From the NCBI RefSeq assembly GCF_054482525.1, contig NZ_CM137006.1: a stretch of 64,000 nt of DNA. One strand, given 5' to 3'. Positions within the stretch are counted from its first letter, which is position 1. Each line of letters opens with the position of its first letter. The translations under genes and the position numbers were made by a program. Under the pieces are notes generated by a model, which saw only the letters and a list, made by a program, of their open reading frames with translations, ran no database searches and was not told where the DNA came from. Shown here in pieces: positions 18,052 to 51,142 of this stretch.

Positions 18052-18272
18052 ATCTCGTTATCGTTGGCCACATCGCGAGCTTCTTTGCTGACGAAAGCCC
18101 ACTTAATACCTTCCTGTAAGGTGCGGAACTTCCAGCTCATGAATCCGCATGCAGTAACGCAGTACCAACCGTTGATGATTTTCCACTGCATAACTTGTTA
18201 CCTCGGTTTGTTACCGTTGAGGTAATGATTATGCGTATTTGGTTTGGTGTCAATAGATATGAGTTAAAAAAA

Positions 18273-18287
18273 TTACCCACAAGGTAA
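18273..18287. promoter_or_regulatory. TTACC-N5-GGTAA motif at the early-left promoter position (OL-like)
   Basis: TTACCcacaaGGTAA between repressor 3' end and start of leftward operon. Confidence 0.5.
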
Positions 18288-18344: not shown

Positions 18345-18929
18345 TTATTGTTTGCTTTTTTCGTTCTGGTTGATGACAAATTCAATGTAACTTTCGATCT
18401 TTGCTTTCTCGGTTTCGGGTAACAATGCGTAGCGCGAGCGGTCATAGTTGATAGTCGCAGGGTCGTGCGGGTGAATCAGTAATTCATAGCCGTGACGCCC
18501 GAATGCGGATGCAACATTCTCCAGGGTGGAAATGGAAACGCTGACCTCATTGTTTAACAGGCGGCTGATTGTCACCTGGGCGACGCCGGATGCGCGGTGA
18601 AGTTTTCCCTGTGTTGAAAGGTCGCGGCTTTCGCTCATCCAGCGTTCCAGGTTGTGAGCCGCCAGCTGACCAATGTCGCTTGGGCCGACAGGCTGAAAAC
18701 CTTCCTGAGAAAGCGAGCGATCGATATCAAGCCAGTTACGGGGTTTATTGGCGGCAGCTTCAATTTTTCGCGCAACCTGGTCGCCGATAACCTTCTTACC
18801 AAGAGCCCAGCGGTTTACCAGATTTGCCTGAGTTCCAAGTTTTTCTGCCATCCGCGTCTGAACACCATTGAATTCACGGTCGATCAAGTCGTTGAGATTT
18901 TGCCTGCGGACGTCCTGGATACTTTTCAT
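18345..18929 (-). CDS. Prophage repressor, two HTH domains, no LexA-like peptidase domain
   Basis: 194 aa; two HTH-like segments; divergent from Cro-like gene; no GxSM/K autocleavage motif seen. Confidence 0.6.
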   Translation of the reverse strand: MKSIQDVRRQNLNDLIDREFNGVQTRMAEKLGTQANLVNRWALGKKVIGDQVARKIEAAANKPRNWLDIDRSLSQEGFQPVGPSDIGQLAAHNLERWMSESRDLSTQGKLHRASGVAQVTISRLLNNEVSVSISTLENVASAFGRHGYELLIHPHDPATINYDRSRYALLPETEKAKIESYIEFVINQNEKSKQ

Positions 18930-18984: not shown

Positions 18985-19047
18985 TTACCCAACAGGTAAA
19001 TGCACCCCATAGGTAACTATCCTTGATTTTTGTTACCTTATGGGTGA
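18985..19047. promoter_or_regulatory. Operator region between repressor and cro-like gene: TTACCcaacaGGTAA (18985-18999) and TTACCttatgGGTgA (19033-19047)
   Basis: Two palindromic sites in the divergent promoter region. Confidence 0.55.
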
Positions 19048-19369: not shown

Positions 19370-19384
19370 GTACCTCAAAGGTAA
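19370..19384. promoter_or_regulatory. gTACC-N5-GGTAA motif (variant) after cro terminator
   Basis: GTACCtcaaaGGTAA. Confidence 0.35.
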
Positions 19385-21271: not shown

Positions 21272-21286
21272 TTACCTGTTGGGTAA
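21272..21286. promoter_or_regulatory. TTACC-N5-GGTAA motif
   Basis: TTACCtgttgGGTAA downstream of P-like gene. Confidence 0.45.
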
Positions 21287-21333: not shown

Positions 21334-21348
21334 TTACCTAAGGGGTAA
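21334..21348. promoter_or_regulatory. TTACC-N5-GGTAA motif immediately upstream of DUF1064 gene
   Basis: TTACCtaaggGGTAA ending 4 nt before ATG at 21352. Confidence 0.45.
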
Positions 21349-25982: not shown

Positions 25983-26015
25983 TTACCACAACGGTAACTA
26001 TTACCACGGTGGTTA
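25983..26015. promoter_or_regulatory. Tandem TTACC-N5-GGTAA sites abutting terminase small subunit start
   Basis: TTACCacaacGGTAA (25983-25997) and TTACCacggtGGTtA (26001-26015). Confidence 0.45.
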
Positions 26016-29193: not shown

Positions 29194-29208
29194 TTACCTG
29201 AAAGGTAA
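29194..29208. promoter_or_regulatory. TTACC-N5-GGTAA motif upstream of portal region
   Basis: TTACCtgaaaGGTAA. Confidence 0.45.
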
Positions 29209-45769: not shown

Positions 45770-46032
45770 CATGTCACAGGCCGCTTTCGCGGCCTTGTTT
45801 TTAACGAATGCCACCGCCGCCCGGACGGGAATCCGCAGAACGCCCACCGCAGCGGGAGCCGTCAGCGGCAGTATCGCTGTCGTGCTGACAACGACCGGCA
45901 AAGGCCTGAGTTGAAGCTACCAGAGACAACAAAACGAACAGTGCAGCAAATGCTTTTTTCATTGTGAAATTTCCATCTATAAGCCACCTCAATGTGGCGT
46001 CAATGAGTGTAGCACTGACTTTTGTTTCGTCC

Positions 46033-46055
46033 ACAAAAAATCCCGCAGCGCGGGC
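46033..46055 (-). terminator. Rho-independent terminator of the minus-strand cargo operon
   Basis: Minus strand reads GCCCGC-GCT-GCGGG-A-TTTTTT directly after toxin stop codon. Confidence 0.7.
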
Positions 46056-46601
46056 TTATTCCTTCCATTTATCAGAAAAAAGATCTTCTTCTAAAGGCAT
46101 TGGTTCTGTTTTTGTTTTCTCAAAGAATTGATAACTGATAGTGATTGCTGCCTCTTTAAACTCTTCTTGCTCAGTTATGTTGTGGGCATCTGCGTCAACA
46201 AAAAACATAACCAGCGCATCACGATTGTGATTTACCGAATAAACTAAAAAGCAATTACTTGTTGGTATGCATTTTACTTGCACAGACGCTATTTTTTTCC
46301 ATGCATCCCAAGATGATTTTTTACCAGTGTGTTTTTTATCACTATCTTCTGGAATATAGTCTTGGTTATCGACATGAGTATGCCTGACATTTAGTTTAAG
46401 CATTTCTGTCGGACGAGCAAATGCAGCATCTTTACCAAGAGATGGATGGTATCCCGTTTTCCAATACTGGGTAAAGGCATCAGATACTTTCTTCAGCTCA
46501 AGATCAGATGCACAAAGGGCCGAGAAATTTTGCGTATGCAATACTCGACCCTTATATCTGACAATTTGATTTTTATCATTCTGCGACGCAGACGAACTCA
46601 T
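46056..46601 (-). CDS. YafO-like toxin candidate with N-terminal extension
   Basis: 181 aa from ATG with AAGGA RBS; C-terminal part resembles recalled YafO core. Confidence 0.4.
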   Translation of the reverse strand: MSSSASQNDKNQIVRYKGRVLHTQNFSALCASDLELKKVSDAFTQYWKTGYHPSLGKDAAFARPTEMLKLNVRHTHVDNQDYIPEDSDKKHTGKKSSWDAWKKIASVQVKCIPTSNCFLVYSVNHNRDALVMFFVDADAHNITEQEEFKEAAITISYQFFEKTKTEPMPLEEDLFSDKWKE

Positions 46602-46755
46602 AATTTTCCTTATTGTTACGAGAATCAAAGAAAGCGCGGGATACGCGACTTGCGTGATCTTTTGTCATAGTAACTTTTACGCACTCTACGCTTCCATTGA
46701 AAGAACGTCTTGCGGCAGCTTGCGCTCTACGCATCTGCAATTTTTCGTTTCGCAT
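46576..46755 (-). CDS. Small basic protein, candidate antitoxin/regulator
   Basis: 59 aa hand-translated ORF (below ORF-track cutoff) with GAGGT RBS; 3' end overlaps toxin start by 26 nt. Confidence 0.3.
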   Translation of the reverse strand: MRNEKLQMRRAQAAARRSFNGSVECVKVTMTKDHASRVSRAFFDSRNNKENYEFVCVAE

Positions 46756-46815
46756 GACATTACCTCATATCTCATAAGTTCATTACACGGATTAATAAAA
46801 ATGAAACCAATCCGT

Positions 46816-46830
46816 TTACCCTTGAGGTAA
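46816..46830. promoter_or_regulatory. TTACC-N5-GGTAA motif upstream of small ORF/toxin pair
   Basis: TTACCcttgaGGTAA. Confidence 0.45.
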
Positions 46831-46902
46831 TAGTACGCTATTCACCCACAGTCTGCAATCTGTACAGAATTATTTAAAGGCACATCCCTGTGCCGCCGCC
46901 CG

Positions 46903-47598
46903 TCAGAAGAACCCTGCCTTGTCGTTGATGTACTCCGCGTGCGTCTGGATATCACGCAGGCATTTGCTCACACCGACGATGTAGCAGAACATGGTGGTCA
47001 GCTCCGCCGCCGCGCCCGATACGTCGTGCCCGTCGTCCTGTAACTGGTTCAGCAGATTCATCAGCAGTGAGTTCTCCGTCAGGCCGAGAACACCAGACGG
47101 CGAATGAATCAGGCTGCGGTAGCCGGGCTTCAGTGGGGCACTGTAGGTTTTGTTCTCTATCTTCATCGCCTGCATCACTGCTGATGCTGTGGCGTTGGCT
47201 ACCTGGTCGGCAACCATCTTTATGCGCTCTTCCTGCGGGAGCGAGTTTTTAATGTAACTTCCGGTGCGGCGGATCTGAGGAAGAACCTCACCTGTAACCC
47301 ATTTACGAAAGCGGTATGGGATAGTGCCTGGTGTCACTGCGTCGCGGCAGCGGAGGATCAGTGTGTAGAGGCCTGACTCGGAGATGATGATCGATTCTTG
47401 CTCACCGCCAGGGGTGTCGGTTGAAGCGACGCCCTTCTCATCATCATCAAGTTTTCGAACAGCATCTCGATGGTTTGCTATGCCTATAGCCCGACAAACA
47501 TCTGAAGCGATAAACCATGGCTCACCATTAATGACGATTACTCGTATATCGGCTTGGGATTCGAAAGAAAAAATGGACGTGCTTTTTGTAGCTGTCAT
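46903..47598 (-). CDS. BRO-N domain antirepressor-like protein
   Basis: 231 aa; N-terminal Bro-N-like pattern (INGEPWFIASDVCRAIG); C-terminal domain paralogous to ORF 47914-48171. Confidence 0.6.
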   Translation of the reverse strand: MTATKSTSIFSFESQADIRVIVINGEPWFIASDVCRAIGIANHRDAVRKLDDDEKGVASTDTPGGEQESIIISESGLYTLILRCRDAVTPGTIPYRFRKWVTGEVLPQIRRTGSYIKNSLPQEERIKMVADQVANATASAVMQAMKIENKTYSAPLKPGYRSLIHSPSGVLGLTENSLLMNLLNQLQDDGHDVSGAAAELTTMFCYIVGVSKCLRDIQTHAEYINDKAGFF

Positions 47599-47867
47599 AG
47601 TGGTTACCTTTTAGTCTGGTTAATCACCACTACCGACGCCAATCGGTTGGTGGTGAGCTGTGCAGGGTTGGCGTAACCGGCTAAAAGGACCCGGCGCACC
47701 TTTCGGTGCCCCCACACAGCCCACCATAATACGAATGTGGCCGTGCTATACGCATAAAAAAACCGCTTGCGCGGTGAATGCGCCTTTTAGTAATCCGGGA
47801 CGCCAATCCCGGCACTGGATTTTGCCAGTGCCCGATTACTATGGCACAAGAGGAGTGCGATGTAAAT

Positions 47868-47882
47868 TTACCGCAAAGGTAA
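47868..47882. promoter_or_regulatory. TTACC-N5-GGTAA motif upstream of BRO-N gene
   Basis: TTACCgcaaaGGTAA. Confidence 0.45.
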
Positions 47883-47913: not shown

Positions 47914-48171
47914 TTATCTGGTTTGTTTTCGTAATTGTTCGGCACAATAGTCGAGATGTGTTTGCAGATCCTGCATAGACATCTGTGAGCTGGTGACGTA
48001 GTTAATCAGTGCAGTCAGTTCGGCAAGTGGGCCATCGACATTAAATCCATCCTTATCTAGATCCCGGAGTAATTTCATCAAGTGCGATCCCTCCACCAGT
48101 GACTTGACGCCTCCCGGCGTGTGAATCCTTTCGGTAAATCCGTCTTCCAGTGGATAGTGATACTGCTGCAT
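47914..48171 (-). CDS. Small LexA-controlled protein, Tum-like antirepressor candidate
   Basis: 85 aa from ATG with GGAG RBS; ~45% identity by eye to C-terminal 60 aa of adjacent BRO-N protein; LexA box upstream. Confidence 0.5.
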   Translation of the reverse strand: MQQYHYPLEDGFTERIHTPGGVKSLVEGSHLMKLLRDLDKDGFNVDGPLAELTALINYVTSSQMSMQDLQTHLDYCAEQLRKQTR

Positions 48172-48191
48172 CTTAATCTTCTCCATGCAAT

Positions 48192-48211
48192 AACTGTATA
48201 TTTATACAGTA
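48192..48211. promoter_or_regulatory. LexA (SOS) box AACTGTATATTTATACAGTA
   Basis: CTGT-N8-ACAG with AT-rich spacer, near-consensus; upstream of minus-strand gene 47914-48171. Confidence 0.75.
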
Positions 48212-48248: not shown

Positions 48249-48263
48249 TTACCTAAAAGGTAA
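48249..48263. promoter_or_regulatory. TTACC-N5-GGTAA motif in divergent region between cargo operon and tailspike
   Basis: TTACCtaaaaGGTAA. Confidence 0.45.
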
Positions 48264-48367
48264 TATCTATTTATATTCACAGTATTTCTATCCATATGTG
48301 GTTTTTCAGGTAATAGAATAACCAGATATGCGGCGCAACGGGTGCTGCGACTATCTGGAGATTTAAC

Positions 48368-51142
48368 ATGACGGTCTCAACCGAAGTTGACCACAACGAA
48401 TACACAGGTAACGGCGTTACGACATCATTTCCGTATACCTTCCGCATTTTCAAAAAAACAGACCTGGTTGTTCAGGTGTCTGACCTGAACGGTAACGTAA
48501 CAGAATTGGTTCTGGATACCGGTTATACGGTAACTGGGGCGGGCACTTATAGTGGCGGTTCTGTTGTTCTTCCGTCGCCGCTTGCTGCTGGCTGGAAAAT
48601 CACGATAGAGCGTGTGCTTGATGTGGTGCAGGAGACTGATCTTCGCAATCAGGGAAAATTTTTCCCCGAAGTTCATGAGGATGCATTTGACTACCTGACG
48701 ATGCTGATCCAGCGATGTTTTGGGTGGTTCAGACGTGCATTGATGAAACCATCTTTGCTTGCAAAATATTACGATGCAAAGCAAAACAGAATTTCTAACC
48801 TTGCAGATCCATCACTTGAGCAGGATGCTGTAAATAATCGCTCAATGCGTAATTATGTCGATGCTGCAATCGCCGGGGTTGTTGGTGGTTTTGGTTGGTT
48901 TATTCAGTATGGTTTTGGGGCAGTATATCGAACGTTCCAGGATAAGATGCGGGATATCGTCAATGTTCGCGATTTTGGTGCAAAAGGGGATGGCATTACT
49001 GACGATACAGACGCAATAACAAATGCCATCATTTACTGCGCATCTAACGGAAAACGCCTGAAGTGGGATTCTGGTGTGTATTTGATTAGCCGCATAAAAT
49101 GCGGCGGGGATAATTATAACTATGACTGGGTAGCTGATGGCAAGGTTGTCTTAAAGTCAACCGCAAAAGAGCCTCTTGGTCCAAACTGGATTGATGATTA
49201 TTTCATAAGACTCGAAGGTGGAGATGCCACGCCAATTGACTATAATTCAACAATAAATCCTGGTGACACATCAATATCAATTAACTCAGCATATTCTGTT
49301 GATGCAGGCGATATAATTATGATTCATGGTAATCGCTTAATTCAGACAGATAATAGAGGACAGGCTTGTGAAGGTGAAATGCATGTTGTTACTGCTTTTG
49401 ATAATGCAACAAAAAAAGCGGAGATATCAGGTGCATTTTATTTTTTCTACTCTGCGAGCAATGATTACTCAACGACCGTAACAGCATCTGTATCCGGAGG
49501 TGAATTCTCATTTGGTAATGATGCAACATTAACAAAACAATACAATCAGGTAAAAGTAACAGGTGTCACCGGAGCTAACGCCGGAATATCAAGATACATA
49601 ACTCATTGGGATTACGACACTAAAACAGCAAAATTTGAATATGCTCAGGGACCATTCCCGTTTAAACCATCTGTTGGAGACGTGTTTAAAATCACAAGAA
49701 AGGCAAATATATATAAAAGAAAACCATGCTACGGCAGAATTGTCGGTGATTTCAATTTTGAAAGACCTGTCACGCAGAACGCATCTCCTGGTGATTTGGG
49801 GTTCCGTGGTCTTGTGATAGATGGCGCTGTTGATATGCATATAGAAGGAATAAAACTAATCGGCTTTTCAGAAACTGGAATTTTTCTTGAGTCATGCTAC
49901 AGAACGAAAATAATAGAGCCATATATTGAATACTCAAACCGTGCATATGATTTAACAAACGGCACTGGTTATGGTGTTGAAATATACAATAGCAGCTATT
50001 GCACAGTCGTGGATATGATAGCATTTGCTTGCAGGAGGGGGCTTGATGTAAGCGGGACTCAAATGGTATCACTGTATAATAACATTATAAATCCAACGAT
50101 GATGGGTGGTGGAACTGCATATGATGGAGTTAAATTTTTCCCTGATGGCGATACAAGAAATTCATGTTGCGGTGGACACGGCCCATCATACGAAACAACT
50201 TTTACAGGCGGCAATTCAGTCAATTTGTATTATGCTGGTGTAATACGCGGATTAAATGAAGTGTATGATGGAATGAACGCCAGGGGATTTAGCGGACCGG
50301 CTCCTTTTTTTGTAAGATATAGTGGTGGTGGGTTCACGATTCAGAACTGTAATTATATTGATGGTTTTACTGAGATGTCTTTGCCATACAACTTGAGGTA
50401 CAAACCTGTGAATGCAACTCAACGTAATCACAGACCTTTTGTTTTTATTGAAACAACTCTGGCACAGACAGACAGAAACTCTTACTATAAAGAACTTCCT
50501 GTTGTTATTAAGAATAATACCGCAAGGACTGTTCTCAAGGGCTTTTTACGTTTTGAGGTTAATGATGGCCTCACCCCTCTAATCCAAAATATTTATTTTG
50601 GTGGTAATTTATGCATGGCGAACCCAGAAACATCAGACTCTGTATCAGGGCAAACAGAGGCAGTAATGGTTTATTCATCAGTTCCTGGTGCAATAATTGT
50701 TCGAAATTTCCATGATCTTGGCGGTAACAGAATTGTTCCTGTTGGAGCAGGATACAGATACTGCGGTATGTTCAACACGCCAGATGGAATAGCAGGAACA
50801 ATAGTTCAACCAGACGGAAAATATCTAATAACACTTGAAGCCAACAAATCTACAAGTATCCTTGTTGGTGGATATGTCCCATGTGTTCGCCTTGATATGC
50901 ACGACATACTTGATATTCATGGGGTAATTGCAGTTGGTGTTCTTATTCATCGTGGTGAGGCAATTGATTTTTCTCCTTTAAAAGAAATTAATAAGCAAAA
51001 TGTTGTATTGAAAACCGGAGTTCTTTCAGATAATGATGGTGATGAAAATAACTTAAATATTTCGTTTGACTTTGCAACCATATATTTAAGCAACAAGATG
51101 CCAAATAAGATTCAACTATCTATTGAAGTATCAGGAGTGTAA
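48368..51142 (+). CDS. Tailspike / receptor-binding protein
   Basis: 924 aa; N-terminal virion-attachment-like region, large repetitive beta-rich body; position typical. Confidence 0.6.
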   Translation: MTVSTEVDHNEYTGNGVTTSFPYTFRIFKKTDLVVQVSDLNGNVTELVLDTGYTVTGAGTYSGGSVVLPSPLAAGWKITIERVLDVVQETDLRNQGKFFPEVHEDAFDYLTMLIQRCFGWFRRALMKPSLLAKYYDAKQNRISNLADPSLEQDAVNNRSMRNYVDAAIAGVVGGFGWFIQYGFGAVYRTFQDKMRDIVNVRDFGAKGDGITDDTDAITNAIIYCASNGKRLKWDSGVYLISRIKCGGDNYNYDWVADGKVVLKSTAKEPLGPNWIDDYFIRLEGGDATPIDYNSTINPGDTSISINSAYSVDAGDIIMIHGNRLIQTDNRGQACEGEMHVVTAFDNATKKAEISGAFYFFYSASNDYSTTVTASVSGGEFSFGNDATLTKQYNQVKVTGVTGANAGISRYITHWDYDTKTAKFEYAQGPFPFKPSVGDVFKITRKANIYKRKPCYGRIVGDFNFERPVTQNASPGDLGFRGLVIDGAVDMHIEGIKLIGFSETGIFLESCYRTKIIEPYIEYSNRAYDLTNGTGYGVEIYNSSYCTVVDMIAFACRRGLDVSGTQMVSLYNNIINPTMMGGGTAYDGVKFFPDGDTRNSCCGGHGPSYETTFTGGNSVNLYYAGVIRGLNEVYDGMNARGFSGPAPFFVRYSGGGFTIQNCNYIDGFTEMSLPYNLRYKPVNATQRNHRPFVFIETTLAQTDRNSYYKELPVVIKNNTARTVLKGFLRFEVNDGLTPLIQNIYFGGNLCMANPETSDSVSGQTEAVMVYSSVPGAIIVRNFHDLGGNRIVPVGAGYRYCGMFNTPDGIAGTIVQPDGKYLITLEANKSTSILVGGYVPCVRLDMHDILDIHGVIAVGVLIHRGEAIDFSPLKEINKQNVVLKTGVLSDNDGDENNLNISFDFATIYLSNKMPNKIQLSIEVSGV

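Follow-up and report, generated by a model that had tools for sequence, protein, structure and literature searches.

A prophage of the Uetakevirus-like phiV10/epsilon15/TL-2011b type, carried by Escherichia coli in the 64,000-nucleotide (nt) stretch of contig NZ_CM137006.1 (assembly GCF_054482525.1) that was analyzed here and is called the window below, holds a two-gene cassette in which a gene for a YafO-like toxin follows a small upstream gene. Both lie on the minus strand. The toxin gene (46056-46601) encodes a putative mRNA endonuclease of 181 amino acids (aa), a long form of the YafO family with the RelE/BECR fold, as judged from homology and an AlphaFold2 model; the upstream gene (46576-46755) encodes a basic 59-aa protein (isoelectric point, pI, 9.9), a putative antitoxin or partner. 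Probably, the two genes form a bicistronic cargo module, similar to type II toxin-antitoxin systems, that is wired into the repressor regulon of the prophage; the most fitting description is that of a long-form YafO clade together with a new candidate antitoxin family. Its make-up is that of type II modules: two adjacent, co-oriented small genes, one of them for a toxin homologue, that are inherited together.

We regard it as nearly certain that the 181-aa protein is a true, though distant, homologue of YafO. The protein matches phrog_1651 (E = 2e-50), and both RefSeq, through the Prokaryotic Genome Annotation Pipeline (PGAP), and UniProt label it “type II toxin-antitoxin system YafO family toxin”. 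Its match to the Pfam family PF13957 (YafO_toxin) is marginal (E = 1.7e-3, 18.9 bits); among its close relatives the same profile reached E ≤ 0.1 in 22 of 22, and E ≤ 1e-3 in seven. In an exhaustive HMMER search, 44 representative clusters were found at E ≤ 1e-3; almost all fall within 150–200 aa, and complete members are about this long in every cluster. The 181-aa protein is thus above the canonical YafO size (~130 aa, a single domain). Profile-profile comparison gave a clearer result. When a diverse alignment of the long family (47 sequences) was compared by hhalign with the single YafO sequence of E. coli K-12, the match had a probability of 93% (E = 3.5e-7), and against a reference alignment of 17 YafO sequences the probability rose to 97.5% (E = 7.7e-12) over 112 columns, which cover YafO positions 13–131 of 134 at an identity of about 19%. 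The diversity of the alignment was needed for this clear match, as a narrow alignment of close homologues reached a probability of 6% against YafO. Residues F25, Y28, P35, R40, D41, H60, and H62 of YafO align with F43, Y46, P53, K57, D58, H74, and H76 of the 181-aa protein, and T80, L86, Y88, and H109 with T114, L119, Y121, and H140. These positions, for which a catalytic role is presumed, vary little or not at all among the 47 sequences of the family, and G56, as part of G56-K57-D58, is likewise conserved and matched to a YafO invariant.

Structure prediction agrees with this assignment. The AlphaFold2 model built on the 47-sequence alignment had a predicted local distance difference test score (pLDDT) of 92.4 and a predicted template modeling score (pTM) of 0.87, and it replaced a run with close homologues alone, in which pLDDT was 60.7. 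Foldseek comparison of the model with AFDB50 retrieved its own long family first and then canonical YafO models of 128–137 aa, with target-normalized TM-scores of 0.7–0.8. A sequence-only reading of the window had noted the resemblance to YafO and suggested a hidden Markov model search and a structure prediction as checks; this resemblance is genuine, as seen from the profile match, the RelE/BECR fold that the protein has in common with YafO models, and the shared invariant residues. Its claim of an N-terminal extension of about 60 aa did not hold, because homology to YafO begins near residue 29. The YafO-like core spans approximately residues 29–160, and the extra length has three sources. 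Ahead of the core are about 28 residues with an N-terminal strand and helix, the first ten being disordered; an insertion at about 82–105 carries a W-rich helix with W98 and W101, W98 being invariant; and at the C-terminus the protein closes with some 20 aa of conserved tail that show the motif MPLxEDLFxxKW. The family is spread over many enterobacterial prophages of different genera and phage types, and its members are acidic to neutral (median pI 6.2; approximately 6.4 for the 181-aa protein). Against the sequences of PDB chains, the toxin profile had matches at chance level only, and a scan of NCBIfam with the toxin, its partner, and a 53-aa protein encoded downstream gave nothing meaningful.

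The small upstream open reading frame (ORF) is a real gene that is co-inherited with the toxin gene, as indicated by comparison of homologous loci. It is preceded by GAGGT 6 nt 5′ of its ATG and overlaps the toxin ORF by 26 nt, so that the ribosome binding site of the toxin (AAGGA at 46611-46607, 5 nt upstream of the ATG at 46601) lies within it. The two ORFs, their overlap, and the good ribosome binding site of the smaller one were described correctly by the sequence-only reading, and neither ORF can be put down to chance. The 59-aa ORF matches phrog_6685 (E = 1e-44), and homologues of 75–95% identity occur in Salmonella, Hafnia, Lelliottia, and other genera. PGAP leaves it uncalled in E. coli chromosomes; it is annotated as gp45 in TL-2011b. 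Pairwise dN/dS over its non-overlapping part is 0.22–0.34, with dS up to more than 1, which shows that purifying selection acts on the reading frame. Every homologous locus examined has a small ORF of 55–84 aa upstream of the toxin gene, which mostly overlaps the toxin start. In Uetakevirus-like loci the partner has 55–60 aa and the overlap is 17–26 nt, and in a siphovirus-like tail-gene cluster the partner has 63 aa and either overlaps by 8 nt (locus L004) or ends 58 nt upstream (L007/L008); partners of 62–84 aa were found in a myovirus-like baseplate cluster, an Arsenophonus prophage, and two short metagenomic contigs. A gap of 2–142 nt takes the place of the overlap in L007/L008, L054, L055, and L056. 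Partner and toxin sequences diverge in parallel, and the partner is basic (pI 9–11 in 16 of 18 cases), which makes its charge complementary to that of the toxin (pI ~6).

By sequence the partner stands apart from known families. It had no match in Pfam, chance-level matches only among PDB sequences, and a probability of 0.4% against YafN by hhalign, in agreement with the earlier remark that the pair has antitoxin-toxin geometry and a partner unlike YafN. Homology among the partners themselves is demonstrable only in a closer subgroup, which includes L052 and L053; for the small proteins that accompany the most divergent toxins (L004, L007, L054–L056), similarity to the 59-aa family was tried and was not significant (E > 1). 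Locus L052, the IMG/VR viral contig IMGVR_UViG_2562617097_000003, has two tandem partner paralogues upstream of the toxin gene, of 71 aa (1630-1845) and 55 aa (1889-2056), and the 71-aa copy matches the partner profile (E = 6e-5); the toxin gene of this contig matches a cluster labeled Providencia rettgeri in AFDB. At 46576-46601 of the window, the disordered N-terminus of the toxin, MSSSASQN, is unusually conserved across genera, likely because the same nucleotides encode the conserved C-terminus of the partner, YEFVCVAE, in another frame. The constraint on this part of the toxin probably comes from partner coding or from translational coupling.

The cassette has its own transcription signals. 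A sigma-70 promoter on the minus strand (46830-46858) is predicted from TTGCAG (46858-46853), a 17-nt spacer, and TACTAT (46835-46830); it was recognized by phylogenetic footprinting and scored below the threshold of a consensus scan. Its hexamers (TTGnnn-17-TAnnAT) are conserved in nine Uetakevirus-like loci of several genera in which spacer and flanks have diverged. Immediately downstream is the inverted repeat TTACC-N5-GGTAA, TTACCTCAAGGGTAA, at 46816-46830, which the sequence-only reading had placed before the pair. It is strictly conserved in the nine loci, includes the last base of the -10 hexamer (46830), and is the only palindrome at this promoter. At the other end, an intrinsic terminator on the minus strand (46035-46054), also reported previously, has a 5-bp GC stem, a 3-nt loop, and a U6 tract (CCCGC-GCU-GCGGG at 46054-46042, then AUUUUUUG). 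On the upstream side, the hairpin GGCACA-GGGA-TGTGCC (46879-46894, minus strand) stands directly 3′ of the stop codon of the neighboring BRO-N antirepressor gene (ant, 46903-47598, minus strand), and in other phages its stem is kept with changed bases. This hairpin probably ends or stabilizes the ant transcript, separating ant from the cassette.

The palindrome before the cassette is one copy of a phage-wide motif. Allowing one mismatch, the window has 17 copies (11 exact, 6 with one mismatch) where 1.3 are expected, including those at 18211-18225, 18273-18287, 18985-18999, 19033-19047, 19370-19384, 21272-21286, 21334-21348, 25983-25997, 26001-26015, 29194-29208, 46816-46830, 47868-47882, and 48249-48263. 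Paired copies (18211/18273 and 18985/19033) flank, in OL/OR-like positions, a gene on the minus strand (18345-18929) for a 194-aa CI-like helix-turn-helix (HTH) repressor, whose PHROGs matches are all HTH regulators; the protein seems to hold two HTH-like regions. Pairs spaced 62 bp apart are found flanking the repressor gene and at 21.3 kb, and single copies at several other promoters. One of these, at 47868-47882, overlaps the -10 element of the promoter (47910-47882) that drives the isrK/C4 antisense RNA region and ant, as the copy at 46816-46830 does at the cassette promoter. From this arrangement, the site before the cassette is predicted, with somewhat better than even confidence, to be an operator bound by the main repressor of the prophage. 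The motif was absent from the contexts outside Uetakeviruses in which the module was found, and it precedes unrelated cargo in the same slot of phiv142-3 and EC.W1-9. Since it is phage-wide, absent where the module sits elsewhere, and present before other cargo, it belongs to the phage backbone and not to the module; for the first two of these reasons, the idea that it is an autoregulatory operator of a toxin-antitoxin system was rejected, although the pair may be autoregulated through another site. By analogy, the set of sites looks like a dispersed operator regulon of the P1 C1 type; no description of a TTACC-N5-GGTAA regulon of Uetakeviruses was found in the literature searched.

The region on the far side of ant contains a perfect LexA box, CTGTATATTTATACAG, at 48194-48209, directly upstream of a 90-aa ORF (47914-48186, minus strand) and 1.4 kb from the pair, and a second LexA-like site with one mismatch at 48267-48282. 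The 90-aa product is similar to the C-terminal portion of Ant (phrog_450); its gene, in a region divergent from the tailspike gene, likely encodes a small SOS-controlled antirepressor, to judge from its sequence. The sequence-only reading had placed LexA-controlled genes upstream, and a LexA box does exist there, but it precedes the 90-aa gene and not the pair, and the view that the pair ends an SOS-linked operon is not supported: the pair has a conserved promoter of its own after the ant hairpin, the 147-nt region upstream of it contains no LexA box, and RNA genes, terminator-like hairpins, and another promoter lie between the LexA box and the pair. Direct LexA control was also considered for a CTG-N9-CAG sequence near 46850-46870 and rejected, as this is not a LexA box. 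In Gifsy and Fels-2 prophages, repressors that do not cleave themselves are inactivated by LexA-controlled antirepressors. The 194-aa repressor, if it lacks self-cleavage, fits antirepressor-mediated induction rather than RecA-stimulated cleavage, and any SOS link of the cassette would be indirect, from LexA through the antirepressor and the repressor to the operator. Between the 90-aa gene and ant (47646-47844, minus strand), Rfam models matched C4 (79 bits) and the Hfq-binding RNA isrK (78 bits), with c4-a1b1 targets in the same region just under the gathering threshold (45 bits); this region resembles the immI-type antisense control of the antirepressor, as in P1, in a podovirus prophage.

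Comparison of related prophages shows that the cassette occupies a swappable position. The 1.3-kb cassette region is 98.7% identical to Escherichia phage TL-2011b and complete in 59 of 5,426 complete E. coli genomes. On its left, plus-strand genes encode virion structural and ejection proteins, among them an 824-aa protein (phrog_684), and on its right, beyond ant, is the tailspike gene (48368-51142, plus strand). The slot is empty in phiV10, and in phiv142-3 and EC.W1-9 it holds unrelated cargo behind the same operator: two ORFs of 52 and 55 aa in phiv142-3 (L058, 1108-1584), and in EC.W1-9 (L059, 881-1682) a two-gene cassette for a 108-aa protein (phrog_10654) and a 167-aa membrane protein (phrog_3996) with a 29-nt overlap. 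The latter was tried as a further YafO relative and rejected (0.1% probability). The slot is a cargo hot-spot in which other two-gene systems may reside. We infer that the cassette is cargo under a backbone promoter that is controlled by the prophage repressor; the earlier suggestion that the pair is prophage cargo is borne out in that it sits in a swappable slot of Uetakevirus-like prophages. Elsewhere, the module is found in late tail operons of siphovirus- and myovirus-like phages, on the late strand. Just past the cassette terminator, a gene at 45801-45962 (minus strand) encodes the 53-aa protein mentioned above, a signal-peptide or membrane-anchored protein (phrog_14503, moron category). 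It has its own promoter-like element (TTGACG-17-ATAGAT) and is also retained by phages that do not have the cassette, as a separate moron.

On sequence grounds, the 181-aa and 59-aa proteins are somewhat more apt than not to be a functional toxin-antitoxin pair. The toxin would cleave mRNA and arrest translation as YafO does, and the partner would bind and neutralize it, with the overlap of their genes coupling the synthesis of the two proteins at the level of translation. Bound to its operator, the CI-like repressor would keep the cassette largely silent in the lysogen. The cassette would be switched on together with the other repressor-controlled promoters, either after infection or upon SOS-triggered expression of the antirepressor. 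Candidate payoffs are host shut-off or competition between phages during lytic growth, or abortive infection or exclusion through leaky expression. A further step would be to say that a new antitoxin family begins with the 59-aa protein, serving a long-form YafO clade that moves among tailed phages as a two-gene cassette, and that in the repressor-controlled slot of Uetakevirus-like prophages the module acts in the lytic program when repressor is absent or inactivated, through shut-off of host translation or warfare with co-resident phages and not through lysogen addiction or abortive infection; we hold this extended form to be speculative and, as a whole, rather improbable.

Several points weigh against the toxin-antitoxin interpretation or parts of it. 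The pI of the toxin, ~6.4, is unusual among ribosome-binding RelE-type toxins. The partner has no match to any known antitoxin family, structure, or Pfam domain searched, and the partners of the most distant toxins share its position with no detectable sequence similarity. At E ≤ 1, no defense-system model of PADLOC-DB v2 was matched by either protein of the pair or by the 53-aa protein encoded downstream. That the repressor is the binder of TTACC-N5-GGTAA is read from site positions only. Classical addiction and abortive infection modules normally need constitutive expression in the lysogen, which makes strong repressor control awkward. Literature searches turned up no experiments that show toxicity or neutralization for any member of the long YafO subfamily, nor any other experimental study of it; the same holds for TL-2011b gp44/gp45 and for Uetakevirus operators.

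Three other explanations were considered. The cassette could, in line with the role favored by the sequence-only reading, be an abortive infection or superinfection exclusion module that is expressed in the lysogen, where an incoming phage would cause loss of antitoxin from a poised complex and the freed toxin would arrest translation. Its moron-like build is in keeping with this, having its own promoter and terminator and standing in a variable slot beside a membrane-protein moron, and toxin-antitoxin systems of the RelE superfamily are documented phage defenses (PMC11980606). The single operator here, as opposed to the paired sites at OL/OR, may also permit leaky expression. However, the overlap of this operator with the -10 element, seen also upstream of c4/ant, leads one to expect that the cassette is repressed in the lysogen, and the location of the module within late tail operons of other phages points to expression in the lytic phase. 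PADLOC is silent on it and no phenotype has been reported; the finding that a related Uetakevirus that does not have the cassette shows no lysogen phenotype (PMC9782041) is uninformative for this module. We consider a defense role of this kind unlikely.

Less likely still is that the 181-aa protein is a lytic-phase phage RNase for host shut-off or mRNA turnover, to which the 59-aa protein would be a cofactor, chaperone, or nucleic-acid-binding regulator and not an antidote. In favor of it are the strongly basic charge of the partner, opposite to that of typical acidic antitoxins such as YafN (pI 5.5), its dissimilarity to all antitoxin families, the apparent tie of the cassette to the repressor regulon and its place in late operons elsewhere, and the conserved toxin elements that canonical YafO does not have (the W98/W101 helix and the MPLxEDLFxxKW tail). 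Yet a small gene upstream of, and overlapping, a gene for a RelE-superfamily toxin is the classic antitoxin-toxin layout, as in yafN-yafO, and strict co-inheritance together with co-divergence is what would be expected of a neutralizing partner. Finally, the 181-aa protein might be an inactive or repurposed, non-toxic derivative of YafO, and the cassette neutral cargo with another function. A Pfam score under the usual significance level, low identity to YafO (~19%), and a protein that is larger than YafO and acidic would agree with that, but the YafO invariants (F, P, G-[KR]-D, HxH, T, LvY, and H) are kept across the 47 diverse members, so that selection appears to act on the same site as in YafO, and the family has been kept in many genera and kinds of phage. 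This last explanation seems to us very improbable.

Among known systems, YafN-YafO of E. coli K-12 (PF13957, in the dinB-yafN-yafO-yafP operon) is the nearest to the prophage cassette, with toxin homology over nearly the whole of YafO, the same BECR/RelE fold and invariant residues, and the same tightly packed order of a small gene followed by the toxin gene. The prophage toxin differs in being about 50 aa longer, the additions being the N-terminal strand and helix, the W-rich helix, and the C-terminal tail, and the prophage partner is a basic protein of 59 aa whereas YafN is of the Phd/YefM type. Regulation differs as well: yafN-yafO sits in the LexA-controlled dinB operon, whereas the prophage cassette promoter carries a phage operator and no LexA box. 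Whether YafO itself acts in a ribosome-dependent manner is still debated (PMC11980606). The ribosome-dependent mRNA endonucleases HigB2, HigB1, and RelE (5mje, 7nbu, 6af3, and 1wmi) are 4–11% identical to the 181-aa toxin, and HigB systems, unlike the prophage cassette, have the reverse order, toxin first, and HTH antitoxins. A putative yafO/ydaS pair of the Salmonella prophage mTmII has been proposed, with no test, as a toxin-antitoxin system or phage-resistance factor (PMC9836087). As described, that pair likewise includes a prophage-borne yafO-like gene; its partner is YdaS-like with an HTH, and its phage is SfI-like. For phage P1 (immI/immC, with the C1 repressor, its many dispersed operators, and c4 antisense RNA acting on ant) the likeness is in the regulatory setting and not in the cassette: Rfam C4 RNA and c4-a1b1 elements precede ant, and one operator motif is scattered over many promoters. 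Unlike P1, the prophage is of a Uetakevirus-like podovirus, and in the comparisons made neither its repressor nor its operator sequence was related to the P1 counterpart.

The mixing of partners among toxin-antitoxin systems and the carriage of such systems by prophages are well known, and the cassette would not surprise specialists. Because automated annotation already names the toxin, and partner swapping and prophage carriage are common, the cassette counts as an ordinary toxin-antitoxin pair that has diverged and not as a new kind of system. If experiments confirm it, the little-studied YafO branch of the RelE/ParE superfamily would gain a long-form clade and a new family of small basic antitoxins. 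Confirmation would also mend an annotation gap, as PGAP calls the toxin gene but not that of the 59-aa partner, which is why the toxin looks like an orphan. With an operator common to the cassette and immunity promoters, and a slot in which cargo can be swapped, these prophages are well suited to studying at what time, and to what end, toxin-antitoxin cargo is expressed by temperate phages.

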